A stretch of 40,870 nucleotides of DNA. Origin: a virus. Taxonomy: Duplodnaviria; Heunggongvirae; Uroviricota; Caudoviricetes. Where the stretch lies: positions 1-40,870 of IMG/VR virus record IMGVR_UViG_2917413769_000003. One strand, 5' to 3'. Positions 4,182 through 5,245 of the stretch are shown one piece after another (within the stretch, counting starts at the first letter, position 1; every line of letters starts with the position of its first letter). The notes below the pieces were generated by a model, which had not been told where the DNA came from, ran no database searches, and worked only from the letters and a program-made list of their open reading frames with translations. A program made the translations under genes and the position numbers.

Positions 4182-5245
4182 TTATGCACCCCGATTCATT
4201 GCTGACTGGCTAGGAATATCACTAGCACCTCGAGCAAAGCACATCATGTCCATGTACCACGCCTGGCCCCTTGTGTCGCCAGTGTACATAATCCCGCGCA
4301 CAATATAAACGCCATCTGTTGCGATGCTGGCAGGCTGCGCCGTGGTGCCGCTGAGCGTGATATTGCCGTCAATATTCTGGTCGGTGATCTGGCCGCCAGC
4401 CATCGCGATATCATTGTTCGAAAGCGCGGTGCGGAATACAGAGGCCTGATCCAGTTGAATAAGCCCGTTAACCCTGATGTTCGGGTTTATCAGCGCGCGA
4501 ACGTTGACACCGTTGCCGATGGTCTGCTGTGGCATGCCTATCAGCCCGGTGGCGCTGTTGAGCACAATCGCATCGTGAACATACTCGTTATTCGCCACCA
4601 TCTGCCGCTGACCATCGACGAACTGCCAGGTTGCGCCACACTGCGAAGCAACGTTATCCATGAGGTGCCGGGTTATGCCAAACAGCACACGGCCACGCGG
4701 GAAAACAGTAGCAGGCATTTCCGGCGTAAGGCCTTCGGTCGCGCCTTGGCCTCGAAGTCCTTCATCAGCGCGCGGTTGACGTCGCTGACCGTGTAACCAG
4801 CTGCCAGCGTCTGCGAGGTGATGCTGGTGGCAAACGCCAGATCCGTATCCGCCGCCTGAATCAGGACGTAAGAATCAATGGGATTGTCCTTGCCGGTCAC
4901 CGAATAGCGAATTTCTCCGCTGAAGATTAGCCCGTAGTTGCGACCATCACTCTGGCCCACGTCTGAGGAGTCAACTTCCCGTGCCGTTCCGACGCTGCTG
5001 GCCGATACCTCTGGCGCGATGCCGTCATAGCCCGCAATCAGCCGAACCTTAGAAAACTCCTGCCCGGTGATGCGGTTCACCGTATCAGCCGACAGGTTGT
5101 AAATTTTGAACGTTCCCACGCGTGACGCGCTGCTGATGTTGAACCAGTCGATCGTAAAGGTCACTTTAAAATCGCTCAGTTCTATGCCCTGGCCGTTCTC
5201 GTCCACGAGCTGCAGCTCAAAATGCCGCATCCAGTTCTGTGACAT
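4182..5245 (-). pseudogene. Baseplate hub protein (P2 gpD / Mu gp44-like) split by an apparent frameshift near 4700-4760
   Basis: ORFs 4673..5245 and 4182..4718 are in different frames and overlap; the C-terminal tail of the upstream ORF (RPKALRRKCLLLFSRVAVCCLA) looks non-native while the other frame is open from a TGATGA upstream. Confidence 0.45.

Follow-up and report, generated by a model that had tools for sequence, protein, structure and literature searches.

A baseplate hub gene split in the draft prophage of Escherichia strain E1130 is very probably a run-length artefact

The apparent split of a baseplate hub gene in the prophage analysed here (a stretch of 40,870 nt, referred to as the window) is, judging from the available assemblies, very probably an artefact in which a run of three G bases was read as two by Ion Torrent sequencing, within an ordinary hub gene of an intact SEN34-like prophage. 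This reading is preferred because a second assembly of strain E1130 (VATL01000037.1, GCA_005781065.1; hereafter VATL) carries the extra G and one intact hub gene of 354 residues. The elements of the split locus are as follows.

4182..5245, minus strand: baseplate hub gene of the Pam3 gp19 / PHROG 196 type, frameshifted as deposited, 1064 nt
4673..5245, minus strand: upstream ORF of 190 aa, made up of hub residues 1-167, 23 out-of-frame residues and a stop
4182..4718, minus strand: downstream ORF of 178 aa from the ATG at 4718, corresponding to the C-terminal part of the hub; its frame is open to 4874
4744..4745: site of the missing base, CC on the plus strand (GG in gene orientation, gene nt 501-502) and CCC/GGG in the second E1130 assembly
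4673..4744, minus strand: out-of-frame tail of the upstream ORF (codons 168-190 and the stop), regarded as a frameshift artefact

The hub gene as deposited

The two listed ORFs (5245..4673 and 4718..4182, both on the minus strand) overlap by 46 nt, the second lying in the -1 frame of the first, and 202 nt are open in both frames when counted from window position 4874, where the downstream frame opens. The upstream product follows the intact hubs up to Lys167 (...MKDFEAK) and then runs into 23 residues, ARPKALRRKCLLLFSRVAVCCLA (window 4744..4676), before a stop at 4675..4673. Over residues 161-175 the window reads MKDFEAKARPKALRR, as against MKDFEAKGATEGLTP in VATL and the relatives. When an intact 354-aa E. 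coli homologue was searched against the window with tblastn, two HSPs were returned in two frames, covering residues 1-173 and 162-354 at 92-94% identity; because of this result, chance is excluded as the origin of the ORF pair, and both ORFs are assigned by homology to a single baseplate hub. Alignment of the DNA to relatives placed the window exactly one base short at gene nt ~499-502. Exact protein look-ups found neither truncated product on record, which fits a locus without a called protein in the public record.

An earlier note on this DNA had described two overlapping ORFs in different frames that together make one hub-sized protein of about 350 aa, and this description holds, with correct coordinates and a repaired product of 354 aa. 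The Cys/Arg-rich tail of the upstream ORF, which had been called implausible, corresponds to the out-of-frame residues after Lys167. The interval 4700..4760, in which a break had been suspected, does contain it, as one base missing at plus-strand positions 4744-4745 (CC where CCC is expected).

Two assemblies of strain E1130

The window is identical to positions 1-40870 of PDIL01000014.1 (GCA_004745435.1), as established by exact-protein look-ups. [quoted passage not shown] In the public record of PDIL01000014.1, no protein is called between the baseplate plug and a 241-aa gene, such that accessions TGC25024 and TGC25025 adjoin without a hub between them. Restoration of one base yields a 354-aa protein that is identical, residue for residue, to TLI63049.1 / WP_138211622.1 ('hypothetical protein FEK66_23860 [Escherichia sp. 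E1130]'), which is placed between TLI63048 (the plug) and TLI63050 (the 241-aa protein).

Comparison of VATL with window 15245..291 gave a 14,956-nt alignment with 0 mismatches and 1 gap. The sole gap lies at the hub junction, where VATL has GAGGCCAAGGGCGCGACC and the window has GAGGCCAA-GGCGCGACC, i.e. G3 versus G2, and the hub gene measures 1064 nt in the window versus 1065 nt in VATL. At the level of codons, the window reads GCC AAG GCG (G2) across the break and VATL reads GCC AAG GGC GCG (G3). The plug and the Dit-like protein are identical in both E1130 assemblies, as are ten further large proteins of the window.

The different contig ends of the two assemblies, together with the existence of a separate read set, SRR8835199, suggest that VATL is independent of the PDIL data; the read set is presumably that of VATL. 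A literature search for VATL00000000 and GCA_005781065 found nothing on the technology or the read set. Should VATL derive from the PDIL reads, with frameshifts corrected by hand, its evidence would not be independent. Elsewhere the prophage is covered by the Logan assemblies of SRR6148301 and SRR8835199, which break inside the hub; no contig crossing the junction was found in either when the plug, the 241-aa protein, the tube, the sheath initiator and the integrase were used as neighbouring genes. An indel that restores a single frame is thus seen at the level of the assembly, in VATL.

Under-calling of a three-base run

Three features of the locus match an Ion Torrent artefact, namely flow-based source data, a single-base change in a homopolymer and the absence of the lesion from the other E1130 assembly, and we infer that the short allele (GG) is the erroneous one. 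On this explanation the true gene would be a normal single gene of 354 codons, in which the draft PDIL01000014.1 would have under-called a three-base G run, GGG becoming GG in gene orientation and CCC becoming CC at plus-strand positions 4744-4745. The resulting shift of frame after Lys167 would produce the 23-residue nonsense tail, the early stop and the appearance of a second ORF, and the real genome would most likely read ...GCC AAG GGC GCG ACC... (A K G A T). The product would be a trimeric baseplate hub with the tube initiator and its plug on one side and the central spike on the other, as in the cyanophage Pam3, on the basis of homology and gene order.

It is documented that homopolymer indels from Ion Torrent data introduce frameshifts into assembled bacterial genomes and vary from one independent sequencing of an isolate to the next (PMC12046094). 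The E1130 locus resembles the false pseudogenes of that study in its platform, in its one-base homopolymer lesion, in the failure of the lesion to reappear in a second assembly and in the presence of discrepancies of like type elsewhere in the strain; the lack of a called protein at the locus is also consistent with its treatment as a pseudogene. The two cases differ in the run concerned, which in E1130 is three bases of G/C, whereas in the Listeria study, which counted only runs of at least 3, the mean affected homopolymer length was 5.5 and adenine was most often affected (PMC12046094). The shortness of G3 for a consensus-level Ion Torrent error is evidence against the artefact.

Discrepancies in run length across the prophage

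The Logan assemblies of the two raw runs, SRR6148301 and SRR8835199, both carry the prophage, and ~17 kb could be compared with the window; SRR6148301 is probably the Ion Torrent source of PDIL. Exactly one position departs from the window in each assembly, in both cases by a one-base change in the length of a C/G run; no substitutions between independent assemblies of the prophage were found in the ~17 kb compared. Together with the hub junction, the discrepant sites are as follows.

~4745, hub: CC in the window versus CCC in VATL; splits the hub in the window
30543, DUF2800 gene: CC in the window versus C in the SRR6148301 Logan assembly (~10294 there); converts 432 aa into 116 + 309 aa in that assembly
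37338-37339, intergenic, between 36381..37307 and 37410..38804: GG in the window versus GGG in SRR8835199; no effect

At window position 37338 the SRR6148301 assembly agrees with the window (GG) and an E. coli relative has three bases (GAG), and this site is probably another under-call in the deposited assembly. The discrepancy at 30543 shows that the SRR6148301 read set gives rise to assembler-dependent frameshifts. The overall pattern is the one expected for flow-space length miscalls and not for mutation between cultures. On the same contig, 10 kb of flanking host DNA are intact (rseABC, lepA, lepB, rnc, era, recO, pdxJ, acpS, yfhL), so residual errors appear to be sparse, on the order of 1-2 per 40-50 kb. 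Scans of genome, viral and metagenome collections returned 0 hits elsewhere for either of the two hub alleles or for the second discrepant site.

These comparisons also bear on the alternative that a real one-base deletion was present in the E1130 culture or subclone sequenced first and absent from the second, with the tail freshly inactivated in that lineage. The frameshift does stand in the deposited consensus at ~50x, and three bases is a short run for a systematic consensus error of this platform. However, the data sources concerned also differ by one base in a C/G run at intergenic position 37338, re-assembly of the first read set broke a different gene, at the CC run at 30543, and substitutions were found nowhere, a pattern that fits technical noise; with the rest of the prophage genes intact as well, this alternative is considered unlikely. 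If GG were nevertheless real in part of the E1130 population, the sequence would have captured the very first step of domestication or decay in an otherwise intact SEN34-like prophage.

State of the prophage

The prophage is integrated next to yfhL, with its integrase at 40395..39001. A tblastn search of the window with 41 proteins of the E. coli 85.0412 prophage returned one full-length, single-frame match for 40 of them, the hub being the only protein to give two HSPs in two frames. No accumulation of inactivating lesions or of deletions was seen along its length, and the module order is complete, running from the integrase to the baseplate wedge genes and on to the end of the contig. The prophage is assessed as SEN34-like (Brunovirus-like) and not decaying.

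This state sits poorly with a frameshift that is real and fixed in E1130 through prophage decay, for which VATL would need to be wrong, either by an over-call or by manual 'frameshift correction' against homologues. Hand curation of frameshifts is a practice of some Ion Torrent pipelines, and the provenance of VATL is undocumented in the literature searched. Such an account nonetheless requires two coincident events at one base in a prophage with no other sign of decay, where the integrase, terminase, portal and tail genes are all full length, and it is very unlikely. Further, SRR8835199 departs from the first read set in an intergenic homopolymer, a place that ORF curation would leave untouched, and independent data therefore exist.

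The under-call explanation removes a false pseudogene, so that the E1130 prophage would be seen with a complete and probably functional contractile-tail module. Apparent frameshifts in the E1130 Ion Torrent draft, and probably in 15 sister assemblies too, need a second data set before they are given a biological reading. The hub itself is of an already known type, an ordinary protein of the Pam3 gp19 type whose close relatives number in the hundreds, and the scientific importance of the correction is small.

Relatives of the hub gene

The hub DNA is 72-89% identical to that of Yersinia phage YP3, Salmonella phage SEN34 (Brunovirus), Klebsiella phage Mulock and prophages in ~300 complete E. coli genomes. 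All eight relatives examined, which included YP3, SEN34, Mulock, E. coli 85.0412 and three further contigs, have a single uninterrupted hub ORF of 353-355 aa, and the motif MKDFEAKGAT(E/V)G is conserved across the break site among them. The tail module of the E1130 prophage is syntenic with those of SEN34, YP3, Mulock and the E. coli prophages, which share the single hub ORF. The Lys-Gly codons are AAA GGC/GGT in most of the relatives examined, AAC GGG in Mulock and AAG GGC in E1130, and the GGG run in E1130 arises because AAG, rather than AAA, encodes the Lys before GGC. A missing A (AAA to AA), first suggested by alignment to other phages, was rejected, as the comparison with VATL indicates a missing G and the Lys codon in E1130 is AAG.

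In one related prophage contig, JANUQU010000012.1 (GCA_030370565.1), the portal, major capsid, tape measure, Dit, sheath and Baseplate_J genes are split in two and the hub is intact; this contig is one more assembly riddled with indels or else a prophage that has genuinely decayed.

The hub and the baseplate module

The repaired hub matches PHROG 196 'baseplate hub' with an E-value of 9.7e-87 over residues 1-352, and the Pam3 hub gp19 (PDB 7yfz) with an E-value of 1.7e-12 over residues 100-295, in an alignment that is continuous across the 167/168 break. Against Pfam PF22759 (E217_GP41) it scored 23.1 bits, under the gathering cut-off of 27, and the protein is accordingly filed as PHROG 196 / Pam3 gp19-like and not as a curated PF22759 member. 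The surrounding genes of the module are the following.

8212..6137, minus strand: tape measure protein with an SLT domain
5550..6137, minus strand: Dit-like tube initiator / baseplate protein (PF21821, E 1.9e-34)
5248..5550, minus strand: baseplate plug of the Pam3_gp18 family, directly upstream of the hub (PF22479, E 1.6e-25)
3454..4179, minus strand: 241-aa ORF between the hub and the spike
2641..3393, minus strand: gpV-type central spike, 250 aa in the public record (N-terminal spike domain, E 2e-44, and Apex motif)

The order Dit_like, Pam3_gp18, hub, 241-aa ORF, spike, Sheath_initiator, Baseplate_J and Phage_Wedge1 is that of a simple myophage baseplate, and the position of the hub gene between the plug and the central spike is as expected for a hub of the Pam3 gp19 type. 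The Pam3 hub is built from three copies of one chain, in which an N-terminal sheet and a C-terminal barrel contact the tube initiator and an alpha/beta domain grips the spike, and the genes gp17-gp23 follow the same order of tube initiator, plug, hub, spike, sheath initiator and wedge (PMC9942802). The E1130 module differs from that of Pam3 in that its hub has 354 rather than 229 aa, with ~100 extra N-terminal residues, and in that the extra 241-aa gene separates the hub from the spike. Homology to 7yfz and the gene order suggest by analogy that the E1130 hub may be a trimer that docks the spike and touches the tube initiator.

The 241-aa ORF (3454-4179) has a lipoprotein-like N-terminus (MSRLAVTTIVFSLFLTSC) and is the sole member of its cluster at 90% identity; no Pfam or PHROG matches were found for it. 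The slot that it occupies holds an 85% identical copy in an E. coli prophage and different small ORFs in SEN34, YP3 and others, and looks like a variable cargo (moron) position within the baseplate module.

Programmed frameshifting in the tail module

The same tail module contains a real programmed frameshift elsewhere. A canonical slippery stretch, G GGA AAT TTT TTG (GGGAAATTTTTTG), is located at window ~8375-8387 on the minus strand, close to where the tail assembly chaperone gene (8791..8336) ends, and leads into a -1 frame that codes for a DUF6889 domain and extends to ~8145; the joined product is annotated in Mulock. The hub locus is like the tail assembly chaperones of the lambda G/GT type in having overlapping ORFs in the 0 and -1 frames within the tail gene cluster. 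It differs in that the slippery sequence of the chaperone is conserved in relatives, whereas the hub junction has neither a slippery site nor conservation.

That the two hub ORFs are expressed as designed, either through a programmed -1 ribosomal frameshift fusion or as a two-piece hub, has next to no probability, for although the downstream ORF is read in the -1 frame, slippage by -1 at AAG-G would restore A-K-G-A-T exactly and the chaperone gene of the module does use programmed frameshifting, the 202-nt overlap contains no X XXY YYZ heptamer (the chaperone gene being positive in the same scan) and no homopolymers of at least 5, the ATG at 4718 is without a clear ribosome-binding site or convincing Shine-Dalgarno sequence, the solved Pam3 hub carries its N-terminal sheet, alpha/beta domain and C-terminal barrel on one chain, and a two-frame or two-gene arrangement occurs in none of the eight relatives or in VATL. 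Comparison with the relatives, at the level of sequence, effectively refutes this reading.

The earlier note had left three causes side by side. A sequencing or assembly indel is the one upheld, by the single frame with one extra G in the second E1130 assembly and by the Ion Torrent source of the reads; prophage decay finds no support in a prophage with 40 of 41 shared genes full length and in a single frame, nor does a two-piece hub, given the uninterrupted ORFs of the relatives and a Pam3 hub that aligns straight across the break. Homologues with the same two-gene arrangement, which the note had envisaged as counter-evidence, were not seen in the eight relatives examined.

Other features of the prophage and its annotation

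Position 1 of the window is the end of the public contig, and the region 1-410 follows directly on the Phage_Wedge1 gene, at the start of the tail-fibre genes. At the equivalent position, the E. coli relative has partial tail-fibre genes and the pinE invertase, and the assembly therefore probably broke at a repeated or invertible fibre segment.

Several NCBI records give the name 'TerL protein' to plug-sized and hub-cluster proteins, including Klebsiella entries of 537-538 aa within the 90% cluster of the 354-aa hub; this appears to be a mistake of naming or of clustering in the public annotation.

Accessory genes in the early region code for a BstA C-terminal-domain protein, a PAPS-reductase-family protein and an SPFH/Band 7 protein; as a group these genes lie at 36381-37307 (minus strand), 35338-36114 (plus strand) and 31714-32550 (plus strand). 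These adjoin genes for DNA polymerase A, an SNF2 helicase, VRR-NUC and DUF2800, and could represent defence or DNA-modification cargo.
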